32,000 bases of DNA. Source: Ktedonobacterales bacterium. GTDB taxonomy: Bacteria; Chloroflexota; Ktedonobacteria; Ktedonobacterales; JADMIN01. The notes below the pieces were generated by a model. The model was not told where the DNA came from and did not search any database. It saw only the letters and a program-made list of their open reading frames with translations. Shown in pieces: positions 12,536 to 26,598 of this stretch (positions are counted from its first letter, which is position 1; each line of letters starts with the position of its first letter). The DNA is taken from the NCBI GenBank assembly GCA_030167145.1, contig CP126532.1:3990001-4022000 (forward strand). Reading direction: 5' to 3'. The translations under genes were made by a program, and so were the position numbers.

Positions 12536-12563
12536 CGTCCAGCTTTAGTATGCACCCTCAGTA

Positions 12564-12591
12564 GATAGCCTCAGCGGGAGTTGGGGCTATC
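12564..12591. terminator. hairpin between the two convergent ClC genes (possible bidirectional terminator)
   Basis: GATAGCC (12564-12570) pairs with GGCTATC (12585-12591) across a 14-nt loop. It sits in the 62-nt gap between the stops at 12535 and 12598. The stem is weak and there is no clear U-tract. Confidence 0.3.
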
Positions 12592-12597
12592 CGTTCT

Positions 12598-14780: not shown

Positions 14781-16469
14781 ATGCAGTCGTGGCAGCTAGG
14801 TTCGTATGAGATAGTGCGTCAACTCGGTGAGGGCGGCATGGCGCAGGTCTACCTTGCGCGAGATGTGCGTCTGGGCCGCGAAGTCGCCATCAAAGTGCTG
14901 GACCAGCGGCTTGCCGAGCGACCCGGATTTCGCGAGCGCTATCTGCGCGAGGCGCAAGTGGCGGCGGCGCTTGATCATCCTCACATCGTTCCACTGTATG
15001 ACTTCGGCGAATCCAATGGCTTGCTTTACCTCGTCATGCCCTACCTCAGCGGCGGCAGCTTGCAGGATATGCTCCCCAAGACGCCGCTGCCCGCTGCCGA
15101 TGTCGTCACCTATGGCACTCAGATGGCCGATGCGCTCGCCTATGCGCATGAGCGCGGCGTGGTCCATCGCGACGTCAAGCCCGCCAACATGCTGTTGCAT
15201 GCGGATGGCCGTCTGATGCTCTCCGACTTCGGGCTGGCGAAAATCCTTAGCCCATCCAGCCGCCCATCAGCCCCGCGCAACCACCCCGACGCTGGCACGC
15301 CCGAATATATGGCGCCGGAGCAGATCGAAGGCCGCACCGATGAGCGTTCGGACATCTACGCGCTGGGAGTCGTACTCTATCTGTTGCTCACCGGACATCT
15401 CCCCTTCGCCGCACCAACCTCCAGCGCGGTCATGGAAGGCCATCTGTTTCGCCTGCCCGAAGAGCCGCGCCGGCTGAATCCAGGTATTTCTCCCGCGATG
15501 CAGACCGTCATCTTGCAGGCGATGGCAAAGCATCCAGCAGATCGCTTTCAGCGTGTCACCGAGCTAGGCGCGGCGCTGCTGAGCGCGCTCGTGGCGGGCG
15601 ATGCCGAGCCGCTGCCATTTCTGCTCAGCAACCCCACCCCTGCGCCACTGAATCCCCCAACGCCCGTCACTGTGGTGCAGATGACGCCACCGACGGTTGA
15701 CGACATCACCGCACCAGCGACAGGCGAGCCGCACGAGCAGCGCAAGGTAACTGCGCCGCGCATGCCCGCGATCAATCCCGACGCCCTCCCCAGATTGGAC
15801 CGCGTCGTGCCCGTCGCCGCTCCCGTACATGAGCCGCGCCAATCACTGGCATCAGCGCCGCCAGCGTCACCAGTGTCGCCGCTGCCTCATCACGTCACCG
15901 TCGCGCCACAGTACCAGGGCAATGGTCTACTACCAGCCCAACCCGCACCAGCCTCACCAGTATTCCCGGTCGCGGCGTTGCCACCCATGGGCAGCCCGCC
16001 GATGCCGCTGTCTCCCGCGTCTTCCGGCCAGCATGGCGGGATCATGACGCCACAAGCCTACTCGCCCCAGCGCGGCCTGCCCTCACAATCGGGCTATCCC
16101 GCGCAATCCGGTCATCCCGCGCAGTCGGGCTATCCCGCGCAGTCGGGCGTGCCATCATCACACTCGGGATCGGGAGTGTTCCCACAGCCGGGCTATGGCC
16201 AGCCCTTCGCACATGCGCTGCCCGCCATGCTGGACGACACTCGCCAGACAGGCCCACATGCGGCGTCCGTTATGGCGCCTCCGCCGCGCCCCATTGAGCG
16301 CCAAGGCTCGAAGGTGTGGCTGGCGCTGCTTGTCATCATTCTCGCGGTGGCGCTACTCGGTCTGATAGCGGCGCTGGTCGAACATCTGATGCAGATTCAG
16401 GCGCAGTCATTCGTTGCGCCCCATCAGGCGCTCGCCACGCTCCATACTATCGCCGCAAGATTCCTATGA
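14781..16469 (+). CDS. Hanks-type Ser/Thr protein kinase with a Pro-rich linker and a C-terminal TM anchor
   Basis: ORF 14634..16469. The preferred start is ATG 14781 (MQSWQLGSYEIVRQLGEGGMAQVY), with GGAAAGGG upstream. Motifs are VAIK, HRDVKPANMLL, SDFGLAK and YMAPEQ. The TM segment is VWLALLVIILAVALLGLIAALV. Confidence 0.9.
   Translation: MQSWQLGSYEIVRQLGEGGMAQVYLARDVRLGREVAIKVLDQRLAERPGFRERYLREAQVAAALDHPHIVPLYDFGESNGLLYLVMPYLSGGSLQDMLPKTPLPAADVVTYGTQMADALAYAHERGVVHRDVKPANMLLHADGRLMLSDFGLAKILSPSSRPSAPRNHPDAGTPEYMAPEQIEGRTDERSDIYALGVVLYLLLTGHLPFAAPTSSAVMEGHLFRLPEEPRRLNPGISPAMQTVILQAMAKHPADRFQRVTELGAALLSALVAGDAEPLPFLLSNPTPAPLNPPTPVTVVQMTPPTVDDITAPATGEPHEQRKVTAPRMPAINPDALPRLDRVVPVAAPVHEPRQSLASAPPASPVSPLPHHVTVAPQYQGNGLLPAQPAPASPVFPVAALPPMGSPPMPLSPASSGQHGGIMTPQAYSPQRGLPSQSGYPAQSGHPAQSGYPAQSGVPSSHSGSGVFPQPGYGQPFAHALPAMLDDTRQTGPHAASVMAPPPRPIERQGSKVWLALLVIILAVALLGLIAALVEHLMQIQAQSFVAPHQALATLHTIAARFL
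16086..16157 (+). repeat. 4 tandem copies of an 18-bp unit inside the kinase linker (QSGYPA repeats)
   Basis: The four copies are caatcgggctatcccgcg, caatccggtcatcccgcg, cagtcgggctatcccgcg and cagtcgggcgtgccatca, read directly. Confidence 0.9.
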
Positions 16470-16495
16470 TGCGCCCGCGCGCATAATACGGCAGA

Positions 16496-16924
16496 CTACA
16501 GCAGGCCAATCCCAGGCCAGCCAGTCAGCTCGCGGGCCAGTGCCAGGAAATCATCAAGCTCGAAGGGCTTGAGCACCAGGTGTGCGCCCATCGCATCAAG
16601 CTCGCTCTTCTCGTGGACAAGACTTGGCAGGCTCATCCCCGTCAGCAAAATTGCTTCAGGCGCTTCTTTCGCCTGCTTGCGCAGTTCGCGTATCAGATCC
16701 ACTCCACCACGATCGCTGCCCCGCAGCCGCAGATCACTGACGAGCAACTGCGCCGGCTGTGTACGGAACGTCGCACGCGCGGATTCCGCGGTGGGGCAAG
16801 CCGTCACCCGAAAGCCATCCTCCTGCAGCGCCGATTCCAACACATAGCGTGTGTTCTCGTCATCCTCGACCAGGACCACATGTGGCGGCAAACTCGATGT
16901 ATGTGCCGATGGGTGCTGTGGCAT
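16496..16924 (-). CDS. single-domain response regulator (CheY-like receiver)
   Basis: 142 aa: VVLVEDDENTRYVLESALQEDGFRV...LLVSDLRLRG...ILLTGMS...LVLKPFELD. The receiver acidic pocket, the phospho-acceptor Asp context and a conserved Lys are present. Confidence 0.85.
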   Translation of the reverse strand: MPQHPSAHTSSLPPHVVLVEDDENTRYVLESALQEDGFRVTACPTAESARATFRTQPAQLLVSDLRLRGSDRGGVDLIRELRKQAKEAPEAILLTGMSLPSLVHEKSELDAMGAHLVLKPFELDDFLALARELTGWPGIGLL

Positions 16925-17142
16925 CCGATTCGCTCCGCATCTCTGTGAGCGCCGCGCGAGCGGCTCATGTTCCTTCCTCGGTGTAGCATGCAGTGTAGCA
17001 CACAGGCGAAAACCGCCGCAAATACGGGCGAATGCCTGTGTACGACATGATGCAGTGATATCCCGCAGAAGCGATGCCGATCTACAACTTGAGCTTGTGT
17101 GCCGCTGCGCGCCCGCTCTATGGCTTGCTCGTGGCGCATCAG

Positions 17143-18357
17143 TTACTCAAATAGCCGTAGCAGAGCATCTCGCATGCGTTCCGCATCGCCCGCGAGATTC
17201 ACGCGGAATCCCACCCACTCCACGCTCTTGTGGCAGAAGTATGACGAGTCCATCAGCAACACGCCCGCGCTCCGGGCGAGCGTCCTGCTATCAAGCCTGG
17301 GCATCCGATGGCGGGGCAGCGCGGCCAGCATGTAGGGGCCGGAGTCTACCGGCGAGAGCGTAAAGCCTATCCCATGCAAGGCCTCCGTGAAAACCAGGCG
17401 ATTGCGGCGCAGCCGTGCCACCACGCCGCCGCGCCACTGAAGCATCGCCCCATTCCGCCCAGTGCGCGCCTCTTCCAGCCAGTCGCGCCAGCAATCCAGA
17501 TACGCCAGCGCCACCGCCTCACCGTTGCCCGCGCTTGAGCCGATGAGTGCGTCGCCCAGCCGCTCTACCGCGCGCACCACTTCTGGCGCGCCCAGCAGCA
17601 CGCTCGTCTTCAACCCATTGAGAAAGAAAAGTTTGCTTGGCGAGCGCAGCGCCACCACCTGATCGCTATACTCAGCGGCATACCACGGCAGCGGCGTGTC
17701 CCAGTTCAACCCCAATCGCGTCTCATCCAGCAGGACGTAGGCCGAGTACGGCAACGCAGCGCAGAGCCGCCTGATCGTCTCCCATCCATACTCCACGCCC
17801 AGTGAGAACGCCGGATTGGTCAGCAGTAGCGCTGCCCGACCTCCGCGCATCGCCCGCACAATCCGCTCGCTATCCAGCGCGCCGGTGATGAAGTCGCGCG
17901 CCGGAACCACCTCAATTGCCAGCTCAAGGTGGCGGCACACCTCAGCCACTGCGTAGTAACACGGCGCAGCCACCACCACCCGCTCGACCCCGCGCTCCTT
18001 GAGCGCGCAGAGCGCCAGCAGCAACCCTTGTGTGCTGTTCTGCAAGATTGCCACCCGCTCTGGCGTCACTGGCGCGCCGCCATGCCGGATCGTCGCGCCG
18101 AAGACCTCAGCCGCTTGCTGCTTCGCAAGCGCAAAATCTCTGGCGTAGGCATACCCCGCCAATCGCGGACGCAGCGCACGCAGCCTGCGCACCAGCGTGG
18201 GCGGCGGGGCTATCTGTTTATCCTCAACCTCCCAACCGCTCACGTTGACCGCCGCGCGCCCCGTCTCGGCCTCGTACTCGCGCATCGCGGCCACCACCGG
18301 CCCGAAGTCACCAGCAAGACATCCGCTCGTCTCGATCATCTGTTGCTCATCTACCAC
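17143..18357 (-). CDS. class I/II (fold type I) PLP-dependent aminotransferase
   Basis: ORF 17143..18384. Motifs are NSTQGLLLAL, LLLTNPAFSLG, VLLDETRLG and RSPSKLFFLNGLK (Schiff-base Lys context). The preferred start is GTG 18357, with GGGGGAG 8 nt upstream. The listed start, TTG 18384, overlaps the upstream gene by 8 nt. ATG 18339 is also possible. Confidence 0.8.
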   Translation of the reverse strand: MVDEQQMIETSGCLAGDFGPVVAAMREYEAETGRAAVNVSGWEVEDKQIAPPPTLVRRLRALRPRLAGYAYARDFALAKQQAAEVFGATIRHGGAPVTPERVAILQNSTQGLLLALCALKERGVERVVVAAPCYYAVAEVCRHLELAIEVVPARDFITGALDSERIVRAMRGGRAALLLTNPAFSLGVEYGWETIRRLCAALPYSAYVLLDETRLGLNWDTPLPWYAAEYSDQVVALRSPSKLFFLNGLKTSVLLGAPEVVRAVERLGDALIGSSAGNGEAVALAYLDCWRDWLEEARTGRNGAMLQWRGGVVARLRRNRLVFTEALHGIGFTLSPVDSGPYMLAALPRHRMPRLDSRTLARSAGVLLMDSSYFCHKSVEWVGFRVNLAGDAERMRDALLRLFE

Positions 18358-18376
18358 GCAAGTTACTCCCCCCGAA

Positions 18377-20017
18377 TCAGCCAATCTGCACCTTCACGCG
18401 CTGCCAGCCTGTCGCACCGTTCGGCACCGTGCCCCGTTGTGCTGGCGTCTGCGTCACGCCTGTGCCGTCAGTCGCGCGCACCACCAGCGTATAGCTGCCT
18501 GATGTCGTCGGCTGCCATGTCCAGTTCCAGAACACCCAACTCTGGTCAGAGAGAGGCGGCATCAGTGTTGCAGTGTGCCAGGTCGCGCCGCCATCCGCGC
18601 TCACCTCCACGCGCTGGATGCCCCGGATGCCCGCGAAGGCTACCCCCGTCACCGGCACTGGCCCCACTGGCAGACGGCTGTTCCGCACTGGCGCGTCAAT
18701 CCGGCTGAGCGTCTCCAGTTGTGCCGCGCTCCATCCCTGGCTCTGGTAGAAGCCTTTGAACTCATGGTCCGCGATTTCGATTTGCGTCAGCCATTTCGCG
18801 CTCTGCTCGCCATAGCGTCCCGGCACCACCGCACGCAGGGGAAACCCATGCCGGGCGGGCAGCTCCTGCCCATTCATCTCCCACGCCAGCAATGTGCGCG
18901 CTTCCAGCAGATCCGCCAGCGGCAGGCTTGTCGCGTAGCCATCTACGCTGCGGAAGATGACATATTTGCCGCTGGGCAGCGCACCCCCCGCCTCGGCCAG
19001 CAGTGTCGCCAGCGCTACCCCCCGCCACACCGCCGTACTCAGCAGATGCCCGCCGACCTCATTCGAGATGCATTCAAGCGTGATCGCTCGTGTCTCACTC
19101 GCCAGCCTGCGTATCTGGTCGTAGCTCCACACCTTAGATCGTCGTACCAGCCCCGTCACCTCAAGTTGCCAGCGGTCCGCGCTCACCACCGGATCGAGTA
19201 CGTTCTTGCTCACCACGTAAAACTCATCGCGCGGCGTGATCGGCGTAATCGCCGCCGTCGGTGACGGCGTGCCGTGTCCCTCATACGACAGATTCGAGCG
19301 CGCGAGATATGCGCTGAGCAGGCGAACAATCGCCCCCGCGCCCGCTACCGCCAACACCGCTCCGCCACCCATGGCCAGCGCCGCGCGCCGGTTTACCCGC
19401 GCCGCCTCGTCCGGCGCCGCTTGTGCCATGCCTGCGTCATGCTTGCGACGCTGCCCCAACCAGCCCTCCCAGGTGTAACGCAGCGTGGCGCTCGCTACCG
19501 CCGTTACCCCAGCATACGCGGCAAACGTCAACGCCAGCGCCAGCAATGTCAGCAGCCGTGCCCGCCCGATGGGATCGCCGTACAGCCCCTCTGGCAACAC
19601 CGGCCAGAAGACCACCAGTGCGACGATCTCCATCGCCAGCGCCAGCCCACCAGCGGCCAGCCAGCCGCGCCGCGTGGGCAGCCATCGCGCCACGCTGCTC
19701 CCAACGCCAGCGAGCCGCTCGTAGAGCGGACCCAACAGCACACCCACAGCGAACTGGCCGAGCAGCGTCAAGCCGAGTGGCCCGGTCTTCTCGTTGGGCT
19801 GGAAGCGAATCAGCAGCGCAACGAATTGGTCTGCCGACATCAGCGGTAGGATACGCTCGCCCAGCAGTTCCGGCGGCGTCGGTGTGCCCCAGGCGAGCCG
19901 CAGCGCCAGCATCACCACAATCGCCGCCAGCGAGCCGAGCAGCCCCGCCGCCAGCCCCAGCGCGTTCCGCTTCAGCGCCCGCCATGTGAATTCTGTGTAC
20001 TGTCGTAACCGTTTCAT
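18377..20017 (-). CDS. molybdopterin-dependent oxidoreductase (sulfite-oxidase/YedY fold) with an N-terminal polytopic membrane domain
   Basis: 546 aa. The N-terminal ~230 aa have several hydrophobic segments. These are followed by FYVVSKN, WQLEVTGLV, ITLECISNEVGG, HGFPLRAVVPGRYGEQSAKWLTQIEI and a C-terminal Ig-like segment (VTGVAFAG...VEVSADGGATWHTA). Confidence 0.85.
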   Translation of the reverse strand: MKRLRQYTEFTWRALKRNALGLAAGLLGSLAAIVVMLALRLAWGTPTPPELLGERILPLMSADQFVALLIRFQPNEKTGPLGLTLLGQFAVGVLLGPLYERLAGVGSSVARWLPTRRGWLAAGGLALAMEIVALVVFWPVLPEGLYGDPIGRARLLTLLALALTFAAYAGVTAVASATLRYTWEGWLGQRRKHDAGMAQAAPDEAARVNRRAALAMGGGAVLAVAGAGAIVRLLSAYLARSNLSYEGHGTPSPTAAITPITPRDEFYVVSKNVLDPVVSADRWQLEVTGLVRRSKVWSYDQIRRLASETRAITLECISNEVGGHLLSTAVWRGVALATLLAEAGGALPSGKYVIFRSVDGYATSLPLADLLEARTLLAWEMNGQELPARHGFPLRAVVPGRYGEQSAKWLTQIEIADHEFKGFYQSQGWSAAQLETLSRIDAPVRNSRLPVGPVPVTGVAFAGIRGIQRVEVSADGGATWHTATLMPPLSDQSWVFWNWTWQPTTSGSYTLVVRATDGTGVTQTPAQRGTVPNGATGWQRVKVQIG

Positions 20018-20126
20018 GTGCGAATTCCTGACTCCCTCGCGGGAGCCTGGACCCCCTCTACCTCTTCATGATTGCCGCATGAATCCAGAGCGCAACGAGT
20101 ATCAGCGTGCAGGTATACACTGCGTC

Positions 20127-21194
20127 TCAAAGGCTCCACTTGCTGCCGCAGCCTGCGCATTGATCCCACGGCTGATCGCTATCGAATGCCGCGCGGAACG
20201 CCTGATATCGTGGGCCATTCCAGATGTCGGCAAACGGCTGCGCGAAGACGTTGCCTAGCACGCGTGTCCTGGCGGGGCCGGGGTGGAATGGCGCAAAGCA
20301 GCACGAGAAGACATTGCCCGTCGCCGTGATGTACGCTAGCTTGCGCGGGCGCTCGCAGCCTGCCCAGGGCCGCCGCTCCTGAGCCGTCGCTGGTGCGCTC
20401 ACATAGTCTTCCGGCTGGTGCCCGCCCGTCGCGCGGAATGTCAGTCCACGCTCGCGGCATGTGCGCGCAGTCTCCGCGATGATCGCCACCTGCTCAGCTT
20501 CGGCATGGCGGAACAGCGCCTGTTCTTCGCGCGCCAGTCCTTCGCCGAAGTAGACCAATCGCTGCACGTAGATCTCGCGCACGCCCGTCTCCAGCGCAAT
20601 CTCCACCAGGCGCGGCAATTCGTGGATGTTCTCGCGCATCGCCGTGAACCAGAACGATAGTCGCGGGCGCTCTGCGCCCATCTCGCGCTGTATTGCCGTG
20701 AACGCTGTGAGATTGCGGATGATTTTTGGCAGTGTCCGCGCATTGACACCGCGCACGCGGGCATACGTCTCGGCCGTGCCGCCATCCAGCGAGACCCGCA
20801 ACTCATTCAGATCAGCGGCGATGAGTGCGCGGCCAGTGCGCTCGCTCAGCGCCGTCGCGTTCGAGTTGAAGAGCACATATGCCCCGCGTGCGCGCAGATG
20901 CGCCACGATAGCCGGCAACTCTGGGTTCAACAGCGGCTCGCCCAGCCCGTGCAATACCACGCGCTCCAGCACGGGTAACTGATTGGTGATGGCCACCACC
21001 TCCGCCAGCGAAAGATCGCGCTCCTCCTCGCGCTTCAGGTGCGTGCGCGGGCACTGGTCGCATAGCTCATTGCAGCGATTTGTGCTTTCGAGATACAACT
21101 CGCGCGGCAATGGCAGTGGCTCGGCGCTCACGCCAGCGGGCAGCGCCGCGAGATCGCCTCGCTGGCTGGCGGGCAAAACCGTAATTGTACGCAT
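20127..21194 (-). CDS. radical SAM enzyme with a truncated SPASM/twitch-like C-terminal domain
   Basis: 355 aa. The CX3CX2C cluster motif is TNRCNELCDQC. The GGEP-like motif is HGLGEPLLNP. The C-terminus has C-X12-G-X4-CC (GCERPRKLAYITATGNVFSCC) and CAGC six residues before the stop. GGAG lies upstream of ATG 21194. Confidence 0.9.
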   Translation of the reverse strand: MRTITVLPASQRGDLAALPAGVSAEPLPLPRELYLESTNRCNELCDQCPRTHLKREEERDLSLAEVVAITNQLPVLERVVLHGLGEPLLNPELPAIVAHLRARGAYVLFNSNATALSERTGRALIAADLNELRVSLDGGTAETYARVRGVNARTLPKIIRNLTAFTAIQREMGAERPRLSFWFTAMRENIHELPRLVEIALETGVREIYVQRLVYFGEGLAREEQALFRHAEAEQVAIIAETARTCRERGLTFRATGGHQPEDYVSAPATAQERRPWAGCERPRKLAYITATGNVFSCCFAPFHPGPARTRVLGNVFAQPFADIWNGPRYQAFRAAFDSDQPWDQCAGCGSKWSL

Positions 21195-21200
21195 CGAACA

Positions 21201-22718
21201 TTACTCCTTGATTGTCGTGGTGATGAACTGCGCCAGGCGCGGCAGCGCATGATGTACGTGCCCCCAGCGACGCCTAGCGAGTGGATACGCCGCTATCGCC
21301 AGCGGCACGATGAAAAACCAGTCGAAAAGTCCGGCATTGCCCTGCGGCGCGAAGATCACATAGGTAAAGGGCATCGCGAGCACGAACAGCCATAGCGCGA
21401 ACGCTAGCGCTGTGCTGCTGCTCGTAGGAGTGTGCGGCGTATGCCCATCGAGCGCGGCCTGCAGTCCTGGACCTTTCAGATAGAGCGCCAGCAATGGCAG
21501 CAGCCCGCCGACATACCAGGGGAAGAGATGCGGCGAGACCAGTATCCAGCCTGCCGAGAGCGCCAGCACCCCCATTTCGGCTGGCAAGCCTTTTCGCAGT
21601 CGCAGCCACAGCACCGCCGCGCAGATCGCCAGCAGCGTCAGCGCCTGCAACGCCATCTGAATCGGTCTGTTCACAAAGAGCGTCGTCACCAGCCGGAACA
21701 CCAGTCCCTGGTCCACGAAGCGCTGCGCGAAATAGGTCGCCAGAAAGCCACCCGACCCCAACCCCAGCCGCAGAAACGGCAGGTAGCCCAGCACGACGGT
21801 TCCCGCCACCGCCAGCACGAACCGCCAATCACGCGCAACCGCGCGCACCGCACCGCGATAGCCGCGCTCAGACGCCGCACCATCCCCATCGCCGCGCCCC
21901 ACCATCGCCAGCACGAAGAGCAGCGGGTACAGCTTCGTCAGCGCTGCCATCCCCAGCAGCGCCCCCGCCAGTGGCCGCGCGCCGCGCCGTCGCGTGTTGG
22001 CCACTACCAGTGCCGCCAGCAGCCATAGCGTCGCCGCCGCATCTACATGCCCCGTAAAGCTGAACTCCAGCACCGGGATTGGGTTCCACCAATAGAGGAT
22101 GCTGCGGCGTGGGTCCAGTCCGTGCTGGCGCAGCAAAACAATGCTCAGCGCTCCGCAGAGCAGATCGCAGAGGCCCATCGCCAGCTTCATTGCCGCAATA
22201 TTCAGCGGCGCGACCGCATTCACCAGCAAGAACAGCATCTGCGCCCCTGGCGGATAGATCGTCGGCGCATCTCGCCAGTCGAGCTTCGGCCAGATCACAA
22301 TATCGCGTAGCGACACCAGTGCGGGATCATTGACCGTGTGAGCATAGGGGCTGACACCGTGCGCCACCAGATGCGCGTCCCACACATAGCGGTAGGCATC
22401 GTGGGAAAGCACCGGCAACGCCGTCAGAAAGACCACCCGGAACGCCACCCCAACGCCCACGATCAGCGCCGTTTCGGTCCACCAGCCGTGCTGGTTCACC
22501 AACTCCGCGCCGGACTCCGCTTTGCTCGCCATCTGTGCCCGCGACACTACCCACCAGCCAGCTACCGCGACTGCTGTCACGCCCAGCCCCGGCCACAGGA
22601 ACAGCCCACCGTTTCCGCCCACATCGCCCGCAATGTCACGAATGCGTGCGTAGAGCGGCAGCGCCGCGACGCCGAGCAGCGCCAGCGCCAGCCAGCGCCG
22701 CAGGTCACGCCCGCCCAT
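21201..22718 (-). CDS. polytopic GT-C-type glycosyltransferase, DUF2029/GT87-like
   Basis: ORF 21201..22856. The preferred start is ATG 22718 (MGGRDLRRWLALALLGVAAL), with GGGAGG 6 nt upstream, overlapping the upstream stop by 14 nt. There are more than 10 hydrophobic segments. The loop motif SHDAYRYVWDAHLVAHGVSPY is typical of this family. Confidence 0.8.
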   Translation of the reverse strand: MGGRDLRRWLALALLGVAALPLYARIRDIAGDVGGNGGLFLWPGLGVTAVAVAGWWVVSRAQMASKAESGAELVNQHGWWTETALIVGVGVAFRVVFLTALPVLSHDAYRYVWDAHLVAHGVSPYAHTVNDPALVSLRDIVIWPKLDWRDAPTIYPPGAQMLFLLVNAVAPLNIAAMKLAMGLCDLLCGALSIVLLRQHGLDPRRSILYWWNPIPVLEFSFTGHVDAAATLWLLAALVVANTRRRGARPLAGALLGMAALTKLYPLLFVLAMVGRGDGDGAASERGYRGAVRAVARDWRFVLAVAGTVVLGYLPFLRLGLGSGGFLATYFAQRFVDQGLVFRLVTTLFVNRPIQMALQALTLLAICAAVLWLRLRKGLPAEMGVLALSAGWILVSPHLFPWYVGGLLPLLALYLKGPGLQAALDGHTPHTPTSSSTALAFALWLFVLAMPFTYVIFAPQGNAGLFDWFFIVPLAIAAYPLARRRWGHVHHALPRLAQFITTTIKE

Positions 22719-24228
22719 GCGCGCCTCCCTCGCCAGCGGCAGCCAGCACCACTGCTTCAAGCGCGGCCAGTGTTGCGGGCGCAGGGTCCGCAACGTCCGA
22801 GGGCGCGTATCGCAATGCGGCGGCGAGCGTTTCCAGGTCTTCAATCTCATCCACATCGAAGCTCGTGGGCAGCGTCATCACGCGCAATCCTAGCGCCTCC
22901 ACCCGCGCCAGCGTCTCTGTGTAGACCGTCGCCGTGCTCATCTGGATGCCCGTGAAGAGATCGGCGGGCCACTGCGCCGCATGTGACGCGGTATGTCTGG
23001 CGCGCCGCTGGCCGAGCAGGTAATAGCCGCCATCGTGCGCCGGGCCGAGCGCCACATCATGCGTATCCAGCGCCGTGAAAGCCGCGCGCACCCAGTCGGC
23101 GGGCATATGCGGTGAGTCCGAGCCGAGTACCACGATCCGCTCGTAGCCCCGTGCCGCCAGCTCAGTGAACCCATGCCACAGCCGCTCCGCGAAGTCCCCC
23201 GCGGGCTGGCGCATCAGCCGCCCACCCGCTGGCACACACACCGCGAACTCCGCATCACCGTATTCATCGGGCGCGGCGTAATTCCAGTACAGGTCGTAGC
23301 CGTTGCGCATTGCCGCATCGCTGAAGCGCTCACCCAGGTCGCGCAGGAATGCCGCATACAATGCCGCCGCCGCCTCGTAGCCGAGCGCGCGGCCCAGCCG
23401 CGTCTTCGTTTGCCCCGCCACCGGAAGCCGCGCCACGATGAACAGCGCATCCCTCCGTTCCCCCTCGCTGTCGTAGGGGCGTCCGGTGGACGTCTGCGCC
23501 GGTCGCCATCCGCGATAGCGCCACAGCGTGCGAAGGATGTGTATGGACGCCTTCATCGTGCCGCTTAGCGTTCCCGCAACCTTCGACTTCCCGCCCGCGC
23601 GGCGATGGTAATCTACGGGCGCTTCCACGATCCGCAGACCAGCCCGTGCCGCCTTCGCCAGCATCTCGGTGGACCATCCGTAGGCCATCTCGCGCATCTC
23701 CAGCCGCAGCAGTGCCTCGCGCCGGATCGCCCGCACCGGCCCAATATCGCTGACCCGCGCGCCATAGAGCAGCCGTAGCGCCAGCGCGCCAATGCGATTC
23801 CCCACCCGCTGCTGAAGTGTCAGCGCGCCGTGTTCGCTCTTCCCGCGCGCCCGCGATCCCATCGCCAGATCCGCTTCGCCGCGCGCCACCATTGCCGCCA
23901 CCCGCGCCGCGCCCGCCGGATCGTCGCTGCCGTCCGCATCCATCAGCAGCACGATCTCGCAATCCTCAGCCGCCCGCACCCCCGCTAGGCAAGCATACCC
24001 GTAGCCCCGGCGCGGCTCGTATACTACCTCTGCTCCTGCCGCACGCGCCACCTCTGCCGTCGCGTCATCGCTGCCGTTATCCACGACGATGATCCGCCTG
24101 ATCGGCAACGCCGCCAGCGCGGAATGCGTCCGCAGCGCCCGCACCTGTGCTCCGACGGCAGCTTCTTCATTCAGTGCGGGCATTACTATCGCAATGGAAG
24201 GAATATCCCGTTCAATCGCAACGTTCAT
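22705..24228 (-). CDS. fusion of a GT2 polyprenyl-phosphate-sugar-synthase-like glycosyltransferase and a DUF2064 (CofC-like) domain
   Basis: ORF 22705..24252. The preferred start is ATG 24228 (MNVAIERDIPSIAIVMPALNEE), with GGGGAGG 7 nt upstream. The N-terminal half has VVDNGSDDAT, YGYACLAGV and LLMDADGSDD (DXD). The C-terminal half has ALFIVARLPVAGQTKTRLG, VVLGSDSPHMP and GPAHDGGYYLLG, the DUF2064 pattern. Confidence 0.85.
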   Translation of the reverse strand: MNVAIERDIPSIAIVMPALNEEAAVGAQVRALRTHSALAALPIRRIIVVDNGSDDATAEVARAAGAEVVYEPRRGYGYACLAGVRAAEDCEIVLLMDADGSDDPAGAARVAAMVARGEADLAMGSRARGKSEHGALTLQQRVGNRIGALALRLLYGARVSDIGPVRAIRREALLRLEMREMAYGWSTEMLAKAARAGLRIVEAPVDYHRRAGGKSKVAGTLSGTMKASIHILRTLWRYRGWRPAQTSTGRPYDSEGERRDALFIVARLPVAGQTKTRLGRALGYEAAAALYAAFLRDLGERFSDAAMRNGYDLYWNYAAPDEYGDAEFAVCVPAGGRLMRQPAGDFAERLWHGFTELAARGYERIVVLGSDSPHMPADWVRAAFTALDTHDVALGPAHDGGYYLLGQRRARHTASHAAQWPADLFTGIQMSTATVYTETLARVEALGLRVMTLPTSFDVDEIEDLETLAAALRYAPSDVADPAPATLAALEAVVLAAAGEGGAHGRA

Positions 24229-24412
24229 CTGTACGCCTCCCCTTCTCGGCACAGCGCCTCAGTACCGGAGAGTATGGCGTACGGTTCTTGTCAACTCGTA
24301 ACGAATCTTGCGAATTGATTACGGTCTGCTGTTAAGCCTCGCGTAACAGTTTCGCGGTATTCTATGTCCAATGGCGGTCATCATGATGGTGAGCGCAACC
24401 GGAAGATGGGAC

Positions 24413-25168
24413 ATGGCGAACATGAATGCGATGGCAGGTATCAGCAGCACTACAGCGCTACACGGCGCCGATCAGCCGAAGCGGCGTGTGCTGGTGGTAG
24501 ACGACGAAGCGAATATCCGCGAGGTGCTCGGCCAATATCTGGAGCTTGAGGGCTTCACGGTCATGCTCGCGGCGGACGGCATCGAGGCGCTGCGGCTGGC
24601 GCAGAGCGCGCCGCCCGATCTCGTCATTCTCGATCTCATGCTCCCCGGCATTGACGGCCTGGAAGTCTGCCGCCGTCTGCGCGCCACCAGCGCCGCCCCG
24701 GTACTCATGCTCACCGCTCGCAGCGACGAATCCGACAAGATCGAAGGCTTTCGCGCGGGCACAGACGACTATGTCACCAAGCCGTTCAGCCCGCGCGAAG
24801 TAATGCTCCGCGTCCAGGCGATCATGCGCCGTGTCGAGGCTACCAGCGTCCCCGCGATGGTGCTCGATGGAGCGCTGCGAGTTGGCGCGCTGGTCATCTA
24901 CCCGCAGCTTCACCGCGCCGAGCGCGATGGCGTGGTGCTCGATCTCACCGCCAAGGAGTTCGATCTGCTCAGCTTCCTCGCCGCCAATCCGCGCCAGGTC
25001 TTCAGCCGCCAGCAATTGCTCGACCGGGTGTGGGATTACGACTACTACGGTGACGCCAGCACCGTCACCGTGCATATTCGCCGGTTGCGCGAGAAAGTCG
25101 AGGCCGATCCCGCGCGCCCACACCATATCAAGACCGTCTGGGGCGTCGGCTACAAGTTCGAGCCGTAA
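24413..25168 (+). CDS. OmpR/PhoB-family response regulator
   Basis: ORF 24371..25168. The preferred start is ATG 24413, with GGAAG 7 nt upstream. The receiver has VLVVDDE, LVILDLMLPG and KPF. The winged helix has LTAKEFDLLSFLAANPRQVFSRQQLLDRVWD...TVTVHIRRLREKVE...IKTVWGVGYKF. Confidence 0.9.
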   Translation: MANMNAMAGISSTTALHGADQPKRRVLVVDDEANIREVLGQYLELEGFTVMLAADGIEALRLAQSAPPDLVILDLMLPGIDGLEVCRRLRATSAAPVLMLTARSDESDKIEGFRAGTDDYVTKPFSPREVMLRVQAIMRRVEATSVPAMVLDGALRVGALVIYPQLHRAERDGVVLDLTAKEFDLLSFLAANPRQVFSRQQLLDRVWDYDYYGDASTVTVHIRRLREKVEADPARPHHIKTVWGVGYKFEP

Positions 25169-25218
25169 TCACGAAACATCATTCACCCGCCAGCACGAAA
25201 TGCTACAGGAATGAGCTT

Positions 25219-26598
25219 ATGGAGACGATTCGCCAGCATCCGGCGCAGACATGGCCGCTCGCGCGATCACGCCGCCGCTTACGCATCGCCGCACGCTGGC
25301 TCAGCCTCACCTTGCTGGTGGTGGTGCTCACCGTCGCCGCATTCATCCTCGTCCTCCATCCACCGGCCGGCCACGTTCGCGACATGGCATTTTATCTGGC
25401 GCTGGCTGGCCTTGGTTCGTTGGTGCTGGGTGAGGGCGCGCTCTGGGCGGCCAGCGCCGCGCGCTTTCGCAACATCCGACTGCAGCTTGCCATTCCACCC
25501 GTGCTTACCGCGCTCGTCATCGCTTGCACCGTCATCGCGCTGGGTCAGGCGATGTTCCTCTCCTCCGACGACACGCGACTGCTGCTCATCTTTCTGGCCT
25601 TCGCGGTCTTCGTCGCTCTCGCGCTGGCCTGGTCCATCGCGAGTGAGATGGCGCGTTCCATCGCCCGGCTCGAGATCGCCGCACGCCGTATCGCTCAGGG
25701 TGACTACGGCTTCCGCGTGCCCGACGACAATTTCTCCGCCGCTGAGCTATCGCGTCTCGCCCGCTGGTTCAACGCCATGGCCGCCAACGTGCAGGAAGCT
25801 TTTGCCAAGCAGCATACCGCTGAGTCCGAGCGCCGTCAGGTGCTCGCCGCCGTCTCGCACGATCTGCGCACGCCTCTCGCCTCGATCCGCGCGATGATCG
25901 AAGCTATAGATGATGGCGTCGCCACCGACCCCGCCACCGTCCGCCGCTACCAACATACGATCCGCGCCGAGGTCCGCCGCCTCGCCACACTGATGGACGA
26001 ACTCTTCGAGCTATCCCGCCTCGACTCCGGCGCGCTGAAGCTGGAATACGAGCGCCTGGGCATCGAAGACCTCATCTCCGACGCGCTCGAAGCTTTCCAC
26101 GAGCAGGCCGCGCAGGCCGGTGTGCGCCTGGAAGGCAGTGTCGCCGACGGATTGCCACCCATCATGATAGATCCGCGCCAGATTTCGCGCATCCTTGCCA
26201 ATCTGTTGCAGAACGCGCTCTCCGCCACCCCATCCGGCGGCGCAATCTTCATCCGTGCCCGCCAGGCCCAGCCCGATGCGCTGCTCGTCGAAGTGCTCGA
26301 CACCGGCACGGGTATCGCCCCCGGCGACCTGCCCCATATCTTCGAGCGCACCTATCGCGGTGAAGTCTCGCGCACCCGCAACGGCGCCAACAGCGACGAA
26401 CACGCGCCCGCCAGCGGCGCGGGCCTCGGTCTCGCCATCGCGCGTGGCATCGTCGAACTGCACGGCGGGCGCATTTGGGCCGTCTCCCCGCTCCCCACCG
26501 ATCTCCGCGCCGCTCTCATCCCTTTGCTCGCCCTCGACCGTCAGAGCGAGCCATTCGCCGGAACTGCTCTCTGCTTCACCCTGCCCTCCGATAGATGA
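25219..26598 (+). CDS. sensor histidine kinase (2 TM, HAMP, HisKA, HATPase_c)
   Basis: 459 aa. The H-box is AAVSHDLRTPLASI. The N-box is ILANLLQNALSAT. The G-boxes are DTGTGI and GAGLGLAIARG. A HAMP-like segment (RLARWFNAMAANVQ) is present. Confidence 0.9.
   Translation: METIRQHPAQTWPLARSRRRLRIAARWLSLTLLVVVLTVAAFILVLHPPAGHVRDMAFYLALAGLGSLVLGEGALWAASAARFRNIRLQLAIPPVLTALVIACTVIALGQAMFLSSDDTRLLLIFLAFAVFVALALAWSIASEMARSIARLEIAARRIAQGDYGFRVPDDNFSAAELSRLARWFNAMAANVQEAFAKQHTAESERRQVLAAVSHDLRTPLASIRAMIEAIDDGVATDPATVRRYQHTIRAEVRRLATLMDELFELSRLDSGALKLEYERLGIEDLISDALEAFHEQAAQAGVRLEGSVADGLPPIMIDPRQISRILANLLQNALSATPSGGAIFIRARQAQPDALLVEVLDTGTGIAPGDLPHIFERTYRGEVSRTRNGANSDEHAPASGAGLGLAIARGIVELHGGRIWAVSPLPTDLRAALIPLLALDRQSEPFAGTALCFTLPSDR

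Follow-up and report, generated by a model that had tools for sequence, protein, structure and literature searches.

Organisation of the gene cluster

The window analysed here, a 32,000-nucleotide stretch of a soil Ktedonobacterales genome, contains five co-oriented minus-strand genes, g1 to g5, between positions 24228 and 17143 (Table 1), and their open reading frames agree exactly with the coordinates and junctions given in an earlier note on this DNA. The longest frame of g1 begins with a GTG at 24252, but the ATG listed is the one preceded by a Shine-Dalgarno sequence, GGGGAGG. The start codon of g2 at 22718 sits behind GAGGGAGG and leaves a 14-nt overlap with g1, and g3 follows g2 after 6 nt with AAGGAG upstream. 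A gap of 109 nt, in which no significant fold was found, separates g3 from g4. Two starts can be considered for g5, the GTG at 18357, behind GGGGGGAG and 19 nt from g4, or the TTG at 18384, which would overlap g4 by 8 nt. No terminator-like or promoter-like sites were found on the minus strand within the cluster, nor were any Rfam matches. Judged from gene order in relatives, the cluster behaves as a functional unit, since its synteny survives permuted order and gene fusions exist among its members.

Table 1. Features of the gene cluster and of the adjoining regulatory genes (window coordinates)
Feature	Position	Strand	Description
g1	22705..24228	-	GT2 + DUF2064/TIGR04282 fusion; start ATG 24228
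GT2 domain of g1	about 24189-23569	-	resembles polyprenyl-phosphate sugar synthases AglJ, DPMS, PpgS, ArnC
DUF2064 domain of g1	about 23445-22834	-	resembles CofC/MobA nucleotidyltransferases; 'GQTKTRL' motif
g2	21201..22718	-	polytopic GT87/DUF2029-type GT-C glycosyltransferase; ATG start
g3	20127..21194	-	radical SAM (rSAM) enzyme
CX3CX2C of g3	21074-21051	-	radical SAM motif, C41/C45/C48
Twitch domain of g3	20363-20148	-	C-terminal
g4	18377..20017	-	membrane-anchored sulfite-oxidase-fold (SUOX) Mo enzyme
TM domain of g4	20017-19325	-	aa 1-231, five TM segments
Moco domain of g4	19192-18746	-	Mo-ligand Cys316
Ig-like dimerisation domain of g4	18706-18437	-	
g5	17143..18357	-	class I/II PLP aminotransferase; alternative start TTG 18384
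Divergent intergenic region	24229..24370	.	candidate shared operator and promoter region
OmpR-family response regulator	24371/24413-25168	+	
HAMP-HisKA histidine kinase	25219-26598	+	

The divergent OmpR/HisK pair, proposed earlier as a plausible regulator, stays beside the cluster despite rearrangements in a Ktedonobacterales clade (10/36 loci), lying on either side of the cluster or between its halves in L001-L026. When 11 orthologous intergenic regions were compared, the regulator side showed apparently conserved direct repeats of TTAC(G/A) spaced by about 11 bp, and the g1 side showed reverse-complement GTAA-type repeats upstream of a hexamer resembling TTGACA. Adjacency and repeats both favour the proposal, and the pair probably regulates the operon, as a candidate dedicated regulator in this clade.

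Domain assignments of the encoded proteins

Pfam and NCBIfam profile matches recovered all the domain assignments of the earlier note, what it had called a truncated SPASM domain being a twitch domain. The g1 protein, in which no TM segment was found, matches PF00535 with 67 bits and PF09837/TIGR04282 with 150.4 bits. The latter score exceeds the TIGR04282 cutoff of 134 and bears out the suggested membership of the DUF2064 domain, whereas the companion suggestion of TIGR04283 for the GT2 domain fails, at 37 bits against a cutoff of 182. Structure matches of g1 include DPMS (PDB identifier 5mlz), ArnC and, for the DUF2064 domain, a protein annotated as 'nucleotide-diphospho-sugar transferase' (PDB identifier 3cgx; E=2.7e-26). 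The g2 protein matches the GT87 family PF09594 with 37 bits (cutoff 25) and has at least nine hydrophobic segments. A loop motif following a TM segment (S105-x-D107-xx-R110-Y111-x-W113-D114 ... G121..P124 ... Y155-P156-P157) is invariant in 35 sequences, including a Xanthobacteraceae homologue and the neighbours of DUF2064::rSAM fusions.

The g3 protein combines PF04055 with PF13186, and its C280, C299, C346 and C349 align with the four auxiliary-cluster cysteines of BtrN. Based on this alignment, g3 is classed as a BtrN-type twitch rSAM enzyme with a four-Cys auxiliary cluster, a kind known from sugar dehydrogenases and epimerases. BtrN is an example of a twitch enzyme that oxidises sugar carbons, and HygY and the NeoN-type epimerases are further radical SAM sugar enzymes with a twitch domain. 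The CX3CX2C motif and a single auxiliary [4Fe-4S] cluster with four Cys at BtrN spacing are common to g3, BtrN and SpeY, and genome context implies a small-molecule sugar substrate for g3; however, identity to these enzymes is only about 16-20%, the full-length fold superimposes moderately, with a TM of about 0.4-0.65, and g3 has an additional, invariant Cys298 beside the BtrN-type set. Foldseek neighbours include DesII, BlsE, BtrN, SpeY and MoaA, as well as the peptide-modifying SuiB, SkfB and PqqE.

In g4, PF00174 (155 bits) and then PF03404 follow five N-terminal TM segments, and RR210-211 before TM5 resembles a Tat signal anchor; both this pair and Mo-Cys316 are invariant in 31/31 Mo-enzyme sequences. 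By alignment, g4 keeps the Mo-ligand Cys and is without the sulfite-binding residues: in the cluster-linked Mo enzymes, R55 of SorA is replaced by Val (31/31), Y236 by Trp (31/31) and H57 by Lys or Gln, and a role as sulfite dehydrogenase was rejected. The enzyme scores higher with SoxC/SorA (136 and 125 bits) than with MsrP (57 bits), every NCBIfam score being under its family cutoff. The Moco domain, the Mo-ligand Cys and, as predicted, Tat-type export are common to g4, MsrPQ and SorAB, and SorA likewise has a C-terminal Ig-like dimerisation domain. MsrPQ and SorAB use a heme subunit; g4 has instead its own 5-TM anchor, in which no conserved His was found, and thus no electron path is evident.

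The g5 protein matches PF00155 with 52.6 bits. Its PLP Lys is invariant, as is an AspAT-like Arg motif, 'GFRVNLAG', in 12/12 sequences, and the Arg presumably binds an alpha-carboxylate, by analogy. On these sequence features and its distribution, g5 is a lineage-specific, amino-acid-type class I accessory transaminase, which argues against sugar amination.

Conservation of the cassette

Conservation was surveyed at 80 loci from genomes and as many from metagenomes, and counts for Ktedonobacteria refer to the 36 loci in which the rSAM gene is flanked by 6 kb or more on either side. GT2 and DUF2064 are each found beside this gene in 36/36 loci, 23/36 have both a GT87-type GT-C and the membrane Mo enzyme, and both are absent from the neighbourhood in 13/36. 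The aminotransferase gene, always directly after the Mo gene where present, occurs in 9/36 and in none of the other clades; a sister clade has an AHL-synthase/FeeM-like acyltransferase in its place. Gene order varies, some loci being split into divergent halves, and the rSAM gene may follow DUF2064, lie between GT87 and Mo, or follow the aminotransferase. The arrangement is conserved well beyond chance and is no chance juxtaposition; four modules, GT2, DUF2064, rSAM and GT-C, form its true conserved core, and the Mo enzyme is often present as an accessory.

The GT2::DUF2064 fusion belongs to the window's clade, the two being separate adjacent genes in most other Ktedonobacteria. Distant relatives show other fusions, DUF2064::rSAM in P0140, P0147, P0152 and P0171, of which the first two are located in GT87-GT2-GT2-fusion operons, and GT2::rSAM in P0127, next to genes for a DUF2079 membrane protein and a stand-alone DUF2064. 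A soil-abundant Xanthobacteraceae clade also has the cassette (in loci with room, DUF2064 28/29, GT87 21/29, GT2 19/19), and in Dehalococcoidia cassettes DUF2079 substitutes for GT87. Beside a 42%-identical rSAM, a canonical NTP_transferase takes the place of DUF2064. In 9/19 Xanthobacteraceae loci with room, the cassette is accompanied at varying positions by an MsrP-like SUOX enzyme with a cytochrome b partner, as in MsrPQ; this enzyme and g4 represent different, non-orthologous SUOX subfamilies (28% identity) in two phyla. A nucleoside-phosphorylase-family gene (PNP_UDP_1) abuts the cassette on either side in 16/80 Xanthobacteraceae loci and is weakly similar to HpnG, the phosphorylase that works with the adenosylating rSAM HpnH. 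Distant cassettes have sulfur-handling and methylation genes nearby (rhodanese, DsrE, methyltransferases), along with a second rSAM. No nucleoside phosphorylase, flippase or obvious acceptor gene was found in the window or in the Ktedonobacteria loci. All such evidence from gene neighbourhoods is correlative, and shared ancestry accounts for part of it inside each clade.

A putative lipid-linked glycosylation pathway and its alternatives

With gene content, conservation, fusions, conserved motifs and family memberships observed directly, we regard the region as a real, conserved and undescribed variant of lipid-linked extracytoplasmic glycosylation, in which the identity of the sugar and the role of the Mo enzyme are inferred. 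There is about an even chance that it represents, in Ktedonobacteria, a widespread and uncharacterised cassette of four modules that would place a polyprenyl-phosphate-linked rare sugar on an extracytoplasmic acceptor. The sugar would most likely be a 5-deoxy-5-substituted pentofuranose from a SAM-derived nucleoside such as 5'-methylthioadenosine, and the DUF2064 domain would turn its 1-phosphate into a nucleotide sugar. The TIGR04282 and 3cgx matches of DUF2064, its replacement by an NTP_transferase in one relative and the PNP_UDP_1 neighbour in Xanthobacteraceae are in keeping with such a nucleotide-sugar logic. The twitch rSAM enzyme could then tailor it by H-atom abstraction at a ring carbon, leading either to epimerisation, such as ribo to xylo at C-3, or to oxidation, and might thereby replace an NAD-dependent epimerase of the mycobacterial pathway described below. 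The GT2 domain would load the sugar onto polyprenyl phosphate and, after flipping, the GT-C would move it onto an envelope glycan, lipid or protein. The Mo enzyme, Tat-exported and membrane-anchored, would be active on the outer face, where it may act on the heteroatom of the sugar, most plausibly in sulfoxide/thioether redox by analogy with MsrP and with MSX and MTX on the lipoarabinomannan (LAM) of M. tuberculosis, or alternatively on the acceptor. The MsrP-like neighbours in Xanthobacteraceae and the sulfur-handling and methylation genes near distant cassettes are in keeping with the former.

The closest parallel by gene content, pointed out in the earlier note and upheld here at that level, is the GT2, DUF2064 and GT-C core of M. 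tuberculosis Rv0539-Rv0541c. Rv0539 (MtxS) makes decaprenyl-P-MTX (methylthioxylose), from which the GT-C Rv0541c (MtxT) transfers MTX, and Rv0540 is presumably the DUF2064 gene between them. As would apply here, a short GT2 yields a polyprenyl-P-pentofuranose donor that a GT-C uses outside the membrane. The initial donor of the MTX pathway is the SAM-derived nucleoside 5'-methylthioadenosine, and MTX, for which an antioxidant role has been proposed, has an enzymatically reducible sulfoxide form, MSX, which on LAM is an in vitro substrate of M. tuberculosis MsrA. An MTA phosphorylase and an NAD-type epimerase belong to the mycobacterial model, for which neither an rSAM nor a Mo enzyme is known to have been described. 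That pathway's acceptor is mannose-capped LAM, and neither Chloroflexota nor Xanthobacteraceae are known to possess it. The identity of MtxS and MtxT gives a much more specific lead, viz., a nucleoside-derived 5-deoxy-5-substituted pentofuranose. A polyprenyl-phosphate sugar synthase and a GT-C are also common to three-component periplasmic glycosylation systems, in which one sugar is added on the outside of the cytoplasmic membrane (GtrA/GtrB/Gtr-type GT-C, and the pentofuranose systems of Kelly et al. 2024), but the window cluster is without a GtrA-like flippase, has the rSAM, DUF2064 and Mo modules in addition, and does not form its donor from PRPP via a PRP-type enzyme as in the latter systems. 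In line with the earlier note, the literature searched describes no pathway joining these genes to this rSAM and Mo enzyme.

The 'arsenosugar' cassette, ArsS-TIGR04282-TIGR04283, likewise couples a DUF2064 and GT2 pair to a radical SAM enzyme and raises an alternative that we consider unlikely, in which the rSAM, following the logic of ArsS and HpnH, would attach a 5'-deoxyadenosyl group from SAM to a small substrate X without tailoring a pre-formed sugar. The resulting 5'-X-5'-deoxyadenosine would pass through a phosphorylase, DUF2064, GT2 and GT-C to give a 5-deoxy-5-X-pentose decoration. TIGR04282 and TIGR04283 are named 'arsenosugar biosynthesis' families by NCBI, and were originally described as neighbours of the adenosylating rSAM ArsS. 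The tight rSAM-DUF2064 fusions fit consecutive steps, and the HpnG-like neighbour and the methyltransferase and second rSAM of distant cassettes point the same way. However, the window rSAM is a twitch-domain enzyme, the GT2 is not TIGR04283, and the 25 best NCBIfam matches of g3 do not include TIGR04167 (ArsS). The BtrN-type, fully Cys-ligated twitch cluster, associated with two-electron oxidation, is not known from the adenosylating rSAMs ArsS, HpnH and MqnE. The window encodes neither ArsM nor any other methyltransferase nor a candidate substrate X, and the arsenosugar cassette is not known to have a GT-C or a Mo enzyme.

It is also improbable that the functional unit is the four-gene glycosylation cassette only, with the Mo enzyme and aminotransferase co-located and perhaps co-transcribed but independent in function, or with the Mo enzyme as the glycosylated acceptor. 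Such a unit fits the Ktedonobacteria loci with neither Mo nor GT87 near the rSAM, the Xanthobacteraceae loci, only about half of which have a Mo enzyme, the gap ahead of g4, and a short Pro/Thr/Ser-rich linker, GTPSPTAAITP, read from the sequence behind TM5 of g4. Against it, Mo directly follows GT87 in most rearranged loci that have them, and in the remaining ones only the rSAM gene (or rSAM and c15) lies between the two, or their order is reversed. Moreover, two non-orthologous SUOX subfamilies have been recruited beside the cassette, and the active-site substitutions are invariant throughout the cluster-linked Mo subfamily.

For the window's clade, a route in which a BtrN-like rSAM dehydrogenase forms a keto sugar, g5 converts it to an amino sugar and this is lipid-linked and transferred appears quite doubtful. 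In butirosin biosynthesis, BtrN oxidation does feed an aminotransferase-containing pathway, and g5, with its catalytic residues intact, is kept directly after the Mo gene in this clade. However, g5 is a PF00155 protein with an AspAT-like motif, and the known sugar aminotransferases belong to the DegT family; it is missing from 27/36 Ktedonobacteria loci and all other clades, the rSAM being universal, and is replaced by an acyltransferase in the sister clade. The aminated sugar of the earlier note is weakened on the same grounds. Finally, it is very improbable that the rSAM serves to mature the Mo enzyme, by post-translational modification or in cofactor assembly, beside a separate glycosylation module: g3 lies directly upstream of g4, has weak MoaA similarity and finds as its best NCBIfam matches TIGR04311 ('putative metalloenzyme maturase', 125 bits) and TIGR04317 ('tungsten cofactor oxidoreductase rSAM maturase', 123 bits), but its TIGR04311, TIGR04317 and MoaA-type scores fall far under the cutoffs of 400, 380 and 284, the rSAM keeps GT2 and DUF2064 in all 36 loci, including the 13 with no nearby Mo, the rSAM and Mo genes stand apart in other gene orders, and rSAM fusions are with DUF2064 or GT2, never with the Mo enzyme.

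Gene layout and component enzymes

The five minus-strand open reading frames and the four junctions between them that the earlier note had described were confirmed exactly by an ORF check (see table), with a purine-rich Shine-Dalgarno sequence 5' of every preferred start. All of the modules named there could likewise be recovered with Pfam and NCBIfam models, namely GT2 and DUF2064/TIGR04282, GT87, Radical_SAM and SPASM, Oxidored_molyb and Mo-co_dimer, and Aminotran_1_2. No terminator-like or promoter-like site was found on the minus strand within the cluster, an Rfam scan of 16300-24600 returned zero matches, and the predicted folding of the gap between g3 and g4 is insignificant (z = -0.48). 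The absence of internal signals fits a single operon, short of proof.

Location of the cluster genes, of neighbouring regulators and of selected features in homologous loci (L numbers) and at a radical SAM cluster representative (P number)
Feature	Location	Strand	Remark
GT2-DUF2064 fusion (g1)	24228-22705	minus	
GT87-type GT-C (g2)	22718-21201	minus	14-nt overlap with g1
Twitch radical SAM enzyme (g3)	21194-20127	minus	6-nt gap before
Membrane-anchored sulfite-oxidase-fold Mo enzyme (g4)	20017-18377	minus	109-nt gap before
Class I/II aminotransferase (g5)	18357 or 18384 to 17143	minus	two possible starts
OmpR/HisK pair	24371-26598	plus	divergent, adjoining g1
Single-domain response regulator	16496-16924	minus	about 200 nt downstream of g5
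Acyltransferase	e.g. L013:5995-6912		sister Ktedonobacterales clade
Protein of about 150 residues	L036, L037, L049, L053, L058, L062, L074, L076, L079; e.g. L074:5033-5479		Ktedonobacteraceae
Alpha/beta-hydrolase	e.g. L071:7682-8485		Ktedonobacteraceae
MurJ-family flippase	e.g. L056:5098-6708		Ktedonobacteraceae
PNP_UDP_1 gene	L107, L109, L113, L116, L117, L130, L138, L148, L154, L157, L159, L166		Xanthobacteraceae
PNP_UDP_1 gene, partial	L105, L110, L119, L131		Xanthobacteraceae
Distant cassettes with SAM-dependent methyltransferase	L084:1889-11836, P0124 locus, L167:1597-9008, L172:4765-6657		
Locus with NTP_transferase and flavoprotein	L171:313-3598		

The DUF2064 half of g1 scores 150.4 bits against TIGR04282 (cutoff 134) and 84.9 bits against PF09837 (cutoff 25.8), and matches PDB entry 3cgx (E=2.7e-26) as well as CofC. 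As judged from its sequence it is a GT-A-like domain related to CofC and MobA, and the motif 'GQTKTRL', read off the sequence, is one that we take to be typical of nucleotidyltransferases. The GT2 half falls far below TIGR04283 (37.1 bits against a cutoff of 182); of the two families named for the transferases in the earlier note, the first therefore stands and the second does not. Its best NCBIfam matches are AglJ (110 bits), Dol-P-hexose transferase and PpgS, each under its own cutoff, and the profile is alike across clades, where AglJ, Dol-P-hexose transferase, PpgS and GpgS lead. Based on this family profile and on matches to the solved DPMS and ArnC structures, the GT2 is a polyprenyl-phosphate sugar-synthase-like enzyme; no TM segment of its own was found in it. 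Fusion of the two domains is a feature of the window's clade; most other Ktedonobacteria loci encode them in separate adjacent genes.

The GT-C protein g2 scores 37.2 bits against GT87/DUF2029 (PF09594; cutoff 25), is polytopic with at least nine hydrophobic segments, and gave no match in a search against PDB sequences. Two of its aspartates, D107 and D114, are invariant among 35 homologues in a loop that follows a TM segment and is predicted to be extracytoplasmic, and a signature after the TM segment (S-x-D-xx-RY-x-WD ... G..PY ... YPP) is invariant and common to all clades, as would fit an active GT-C.

The radical SAM enzyme g3 (100% identical to NCBI OJF49_003851) is of the twitch-domain, BtrN type, with a CX3CX2C motif at C41/C45/C48. 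Each of the four cysteines that ligate the auxiliary cluster of BtrN has an aligned counterpart in g3 (C280, C299, C346 and C349), and these residues, as well as the neighbouring C298, do not vary among 24 sequences that represent two phyla. The second SPASM cluster motif, CX2CX5CX3C, is absent from the g3 sequence and the domain is therefore a twitch domain, which bears out its earlier description as a truncated SPASM. In BtrN, the fully ligated twitch cluster supports the two-electron oxidation of a cyclitol carbon. The AlphaFold model of g3 (pLDDT 77) has mixed fold neighbours, some of which modify sugars or nucleotides (DesII, BlsE, MoaA, BtrN, SpeY) and others peptides (SuiB, SkfB, PqqE, EpeE). 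The fold alone thus leaves the substrate class undecided, and it is the fusions and the genomic context that would decide it: the fusion of radical SAM homologues to DUF2064 and to GT2 argues for a small-molecule pathway. Other assignments were set aside. Against a peptide maturase, the conserved neighbour families showed no sign of a recurring small ORF. MoaA or another molybdenum cofactor enzyme was rejected on a score of 39.6 bits (cutoff 284) and on the 13/36 loci that have no Mo enzyme beside the radical SAM gene, and the scores for the metalloenzyme-maturase families TIGR04311 and TIGR04317 are also too low (125 bits against 400 and 122.8 against 380, respectively).

In the Mo enzyme g4, five TM segments are followed by the Oxidored_molyb and Mo-co_dimer domains. 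The Mo-ligand cysteine (C316) is conserved in 31/31 sequences; at the positions of SorA R55, H57 and Y236, which are presumably the sulfite-binding and catalytic residues, there are V269 (31/31), K/Q and W429 (31/31), respectively, and the R55M mutant of SorA (PDB entry 2ca3) is among the structural-sequence matches. The protein scores under every NCBIfam cutoff. Identification as a sulfite dehydrogenase or oxidase was rejected on the replaced active-site residues and on the SoxC and SorA scores (136 bits against 420 and 125 against 600), and identification as MsrP (YedY) on a score of 56.7 bits against 207 and the lack of an MsrQ gene. The replaced residues and missed cutoffs, together with the lack of a conserved His in the TM domain, indicate that g4 is not a sulfite dehydrogenase and is without an MsrQ-like heme site. 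An invariant arginine pair (RR210-211) precedes TM5 and looks like a Tat signal anchor, which would place the Mo domain outside the membrane.

Linkage in Ktedonobacteria and beyond

A genome scan with the radical SAM alignment retrieved 80 loci, all from class Ktedonobacteria and at 51-80% identity, with which the window proteins were compared by tblastn. Of the 80, 36 extend for 6 kb or more in both directions from the radical SAM gene; in these, GT2 and DUF2064 are always present (36/36 each), GT87 and the Mo enzyme occur in 23/36 each, the OmpR/HisK pair in 10/36 and the aminotransferase in 9/36, though such neighbourhood counts inside each clade are partly phylogenetically dependent. The position of the radical SAM gene varies: it may come right after DUF2064, stand between GT87 and the Mo enzyme, or follow the aminotransferase. 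In L069, L070 and L072 the cluster consists of two halves that diverge. Linkage that is kept through rearrangement argues for function rather than inertia, and along with the gene fusions it lends good support to the earlier proposal that the five genes are a functional unit.

The accessory genes differ between clades, the aminotransferase being that of the window's clade. A sister Ktedonobacterales clade without it (L012-L023) has, between radical SAM and GT87, an acyltransferase resembling autoinducer synthases, FeeM and PEP-CTERM-associated acyltransferases (PF00765, 45 bits; TIGR03694, 55 bits). In Ktedonobacteraceae the cassette is bordered, on one side or the other, by the gene of a conserved protein (about 150 residues) that matches neither Pfam nor NCBIfam models. 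In Ktedonobacteraceae loci without nearby GT87 and Mo genes, GT2-DUF2064-rSAM is abutted by an alpha/beta-hydrolase gene on either side (15 loci) and by a convergent MurJ-family flippase gene (15 loci), which may be either a housekeeping copy or a flippase for the donor.

A search of 1.84 billion cluster representatives returned 199 radical SAM clusters at E<=1e-30. They include DUF2064::rSAM fusions (P0140, P0147, P0152, P0171, P0174) and a GT2::rSAM fusion (P0127), the latter accompanied by DUF2079, DUF2064, rhodanese, methyltransferase and a second radical SAM gene. The neighbourhoods of P0140 and P0147 read GT87 - GT2 - GT2 - DUF2064::rSAM with 4-nt overlaps, a Dehalococcoidia MAG has DUF2064 - rSAM - DUF2079 - GT2, the P0124 locus has rSAM - methyltransferase - rSAM - ? 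- GT87 - DUF2064 - GT2 beside DsrE, and another distant locus has methyltransferase - GT2 - GT-C - DUF547 - GT2 - rSAM - rSAM. SAM-dependent methyltransferases recur in distant cassettes, as does a second radical SAM protein of about 330 residues (L084, the P0124 locus, L167), and rhodanese, c-type cytochrome or DsrE/DsbD/redoxin genes lie near them; these neighbours hint that the sugar may undergo chemistry involving sulfur and methyl groups. At L171, the genes after a 42%-identical twitch radical SAM gene encode a flavoprotein resembling amine oxidases and a canonical sugar-1-phosphate NTP_transferase in place of DUF2064, GT2 and GT-C, and this locus may represent a cytoplasmic nucleotide-sugar variant of the pathway. 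Seven further representatives (P0160, P0166, P0181, P0192, P0207, P0218, P0253) are giant proteins (770-1480 residues) in which rSAM-SPASM units with about 30% identity to g3 are arranged in tandem; in P0160, TPR repeats and a sulfotransferase domain are present as well.

A Xanthobacteraceae clade, 43-46% identical to g3, is very abundant in soil metagenomes and has the gene order DUF2064 - GT87 - rSAM - GT2; where the retrieved locus leaves room, DUF2064 is found in 28/29, GT87 in 21/29 and GT2 in 19/19 loci. The next genes in 9/19 loci with downstream room encode a PF01292 cytochrome b and a Mo enzyme resembling MsrP, at times joined by a ModA-like binding protein, and in other loci the cytochrome b/Mo pair is upstream, or 3-4 kb off on the opposite strand. 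This Mo enzyme (motif 'HVCVEGWS') scores 85 bits, below the cutoff, against the MsrP model and is only 28% identical to the Mo core of g4; two different sulfite-oxidase-fold subfamilies have thus been recruited to the cassette in two phyla. A gene of the nucleoside-phosphorylase superfamily (PNP_UDP_1) is present in 16/80 Xanthobacteraceae loci, directly after GT2 or directly before DUF2064. It is divergent (90 bits in Pfam, with weak similarity to DeoD, AMP-nucleosidase, HpnG and MtnN), and GT87 is missing from three of the retrieved loci that carry it (L109, L113, L116). No PNP-family gene was found at E<1e-4 in the window or in the Ktedonobacteria loci.

Possible relation to methylthioxylose glycosylation and competing readings

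Rv0540 of M. tuberculosis is presumably a DUF2064 protein. The methylthioxylose (MTX) route that Angala et al. are said to have proposed in 2017 leads from 5'-methylthioadenosine through methylthioribose-1-P and a nucleotide sugar to C-3 epimerisation, decaprenyl-P and lipoarabinomannan (LAM). Rv0539 (MtxS) makes the decaprenyl-phosphate-linked MTX donor, and Rv0541c (MtxT) is the GT-C that caps LAM with MTX. The cluster resembles the module MtxS-Rv0540-MtxT in combining a short polyprenyl-P GT2, a DUF2064 protein and a GT-C, a likeness of family-level gene content only that extends to the window, 23/36 Ktedonobacteria and 21/29 Xanthobacteraceae loci. The parallel with an Rv0539-Rv0541c trio drawn in the earlier note holds at this level. 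What the cluster has in addition to an MTX-type pathway is a radical SAM enzyme of the twitch type and a recurrent Mo enzyme with the sulfite-oxidase fold. The parts of a three-component system that it contains are a synthase-like GT2 and a GT-C; no GtrA-like small gene lies within 17143-24228, where the genes are tightly packed, a MurJ-family gene is beside the cassette only in some Ktedonobacteraceae loci, and the window encodes no flippase, acceptor or phosphorylase gene. We consider the cluster best filed as a variant of MTX-type lipid-linked extracytoplasmic glycosylation that is widespread in soil bacteria, no description of the cassette having been found in the literature searched.

The chances seem to us roughly even for a five-step scheme of lipid-linked glycosylation, in which DUF2064 would activate a nucleoside-derived sugar-1-phosphate, the twitch radical SAM enzyme would tailor the sugar by epimerisation or oxidation, GT2 would load it on polyprenyl phosphate, GT-C would transfer it outside the membrane, and the Mo enzyme, exported and with a pocket that does not suit sulfite, would act on the product. 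In this scheme the radical SAM enzyme would stand in for an epimerase, none of which appears to be encoded by any cassette, as judged from Pfam annotations of the retrieved loci and the conserved neighbour families. By analogy, a 5-deoxy-5-substituted pentofuranose from a SAM-derived nucleoside may be the common denominator of MTX and arsenosugars, and the Xanthobacteraceae phosphorylase-family gene and the NTP_transferase substitution agree with such nucleoside-derived-sugar logic.

In vitro, M. tuberculosis MsrA accepts the sulfoxide form of MTX (MSX) as a substrate, and MTX itself has been suggested to serve as an antioxidant. Together with the MsrP-like partner in Xanthobacteraceae and the rhodanese/DsrE and methyltransferase genes near distant cassettes, this precedent makes sulfoxide/thioether redox the preferred chemistry for the Mo enzyme, yet we hold the specific combination of a thioether sugar with a sulfoxide reductase to be unlikely. 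An equally doubtful extension is that the envelopes of soil Chloroflexota and Xanthobacteraceae bear an MTX-type methylthio-pentofuranose or another 5-deoxy-5-heteroatom sugar made from SAM by-products, with the radical SAM enzyme as epimerase or oxidase and the extracytoplasmic Mo enzyme keeping the thioether reduced or cycling it, as a regenerable surface antioxidant shield.

The radical SAM enzyme may instead have an adenosylating role of the ArsS/HpnH type. NCBI labels both TIGR04282 and TIGR04283 as 'arsenosugar biosynthesis' families, and their genes, as we understand it, neighbour the adenosylating radical SAM enzyme ArsS. The 25 top-scoring NCBIfam models for g3 (all E <= 3e-8) do not include TIGR04167 (ArsS), and an ArsS-linked arsenosugar cassette was rejected, g3 having a SPASM/twitch C-terminus and the window cluster no methyltransferase.

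An amino-sugar route could operate in the window's clade, where the aminotransferase g5 scores 52.6 bits against PF00155 (cutoff 19.7) and reached no NCBIfam equivalog cutoff. Its 'SPSK' Lys250, 'DETR' and 'GFR393VN' are invariant in 12 orthologues and presumably correspond to the PLP-binding Lys, the pyridine-N Asp and the alpha-carboxylate Arg of AspAT. The PLP lysine, the DE motif and the AspAT-like 'GFRVN' arginine point to an amino-acid-type transaminase and not to a DegT-type sugar aminotransferase.

The Mo enzyme could also be functionally independent, or itself the acceptor. It follows GT87 within about 2.2 kb in 26/37 cases with room; in most other cases, the window included, the radical SAM gene alone or with the neighbour-protein family c15 separates the two, or the Mo gene precedes GT87. 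The exceptions are L021, where the Mo gene is about 5.6 kb upstream of GT87, past the OmpR/HisK pair, and L024, which has no Mo match. Weakest is the proposal that the radical SAM enzyme matures its Mo neighbour, since it is always with GT2 and DUF2064, is fused to them, and is often without a nearby Mo enzyme.

According to Kelly et al. (2024), it is unclear if MTX-type modification occurs beyond LAM assembly, and the cassette is a concrete candidate for it outside LAM in two unrelated soil phyla. MTX-type glycosylation, if the antioxidant-shield reading is true, would be an ancient and widespread environmental trait and not a mycobacterial speciality. The pathway would give a function to DUF2064/TIGR04282, to a twitch radical SAM family that lacks curation (199 clusters at 50% identity and the above threshold, with thousands of soil sequences) and to a distinct sulfite-oxidase-fold Mo subfamily predicted to be unable to bind sulfite; should the Mo enzyme act on the sugar, it would be the first dedicated to glycan modification. 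To our knowledge, the envelope glycobiology of Ktedonobacteria is essentially unexplored, and the cluster would offer a first handle on it.

Regulatory and flanking genes

The region between g1 and the OmpR/HisK pair (24229-24370) was compared with the orthologous intergenic regions of L001, L005-L007, L013, L019, L022, L023, L025 and L026. TTAC(G/A) half-sites about 11 bp apart adjoin the OmpR-type regulator gene in 11/11 loci; towards g1, a TTGACA/TTCGCA hexamer is preceded by repeats of the reverse-complement GTAA type. These repeats look like a candidate shared operator of the OmpR/PhoB type. The single-domain response regulator downstream of g5 probably has its own promoter, because TGTGCTACACT is present in its intergenic region; its homologues (neighbour-protein family c12), most often accompanied by a histidine kinase, lie within a few kb of GT2-DUF2064-rSAM in 11 Ktedonobacteraceae loci.

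Nothing evidently connects the cluster with the rest of the window, which encodes CLC channels, an MFS transporter, a GH2 hydrolase and a Ser/Thr kinase. The CLC chloride-channel genes (10415-14505) are two, convergent and back-to-back, and encode proteins of 706 and 635 residues with CBS domains.
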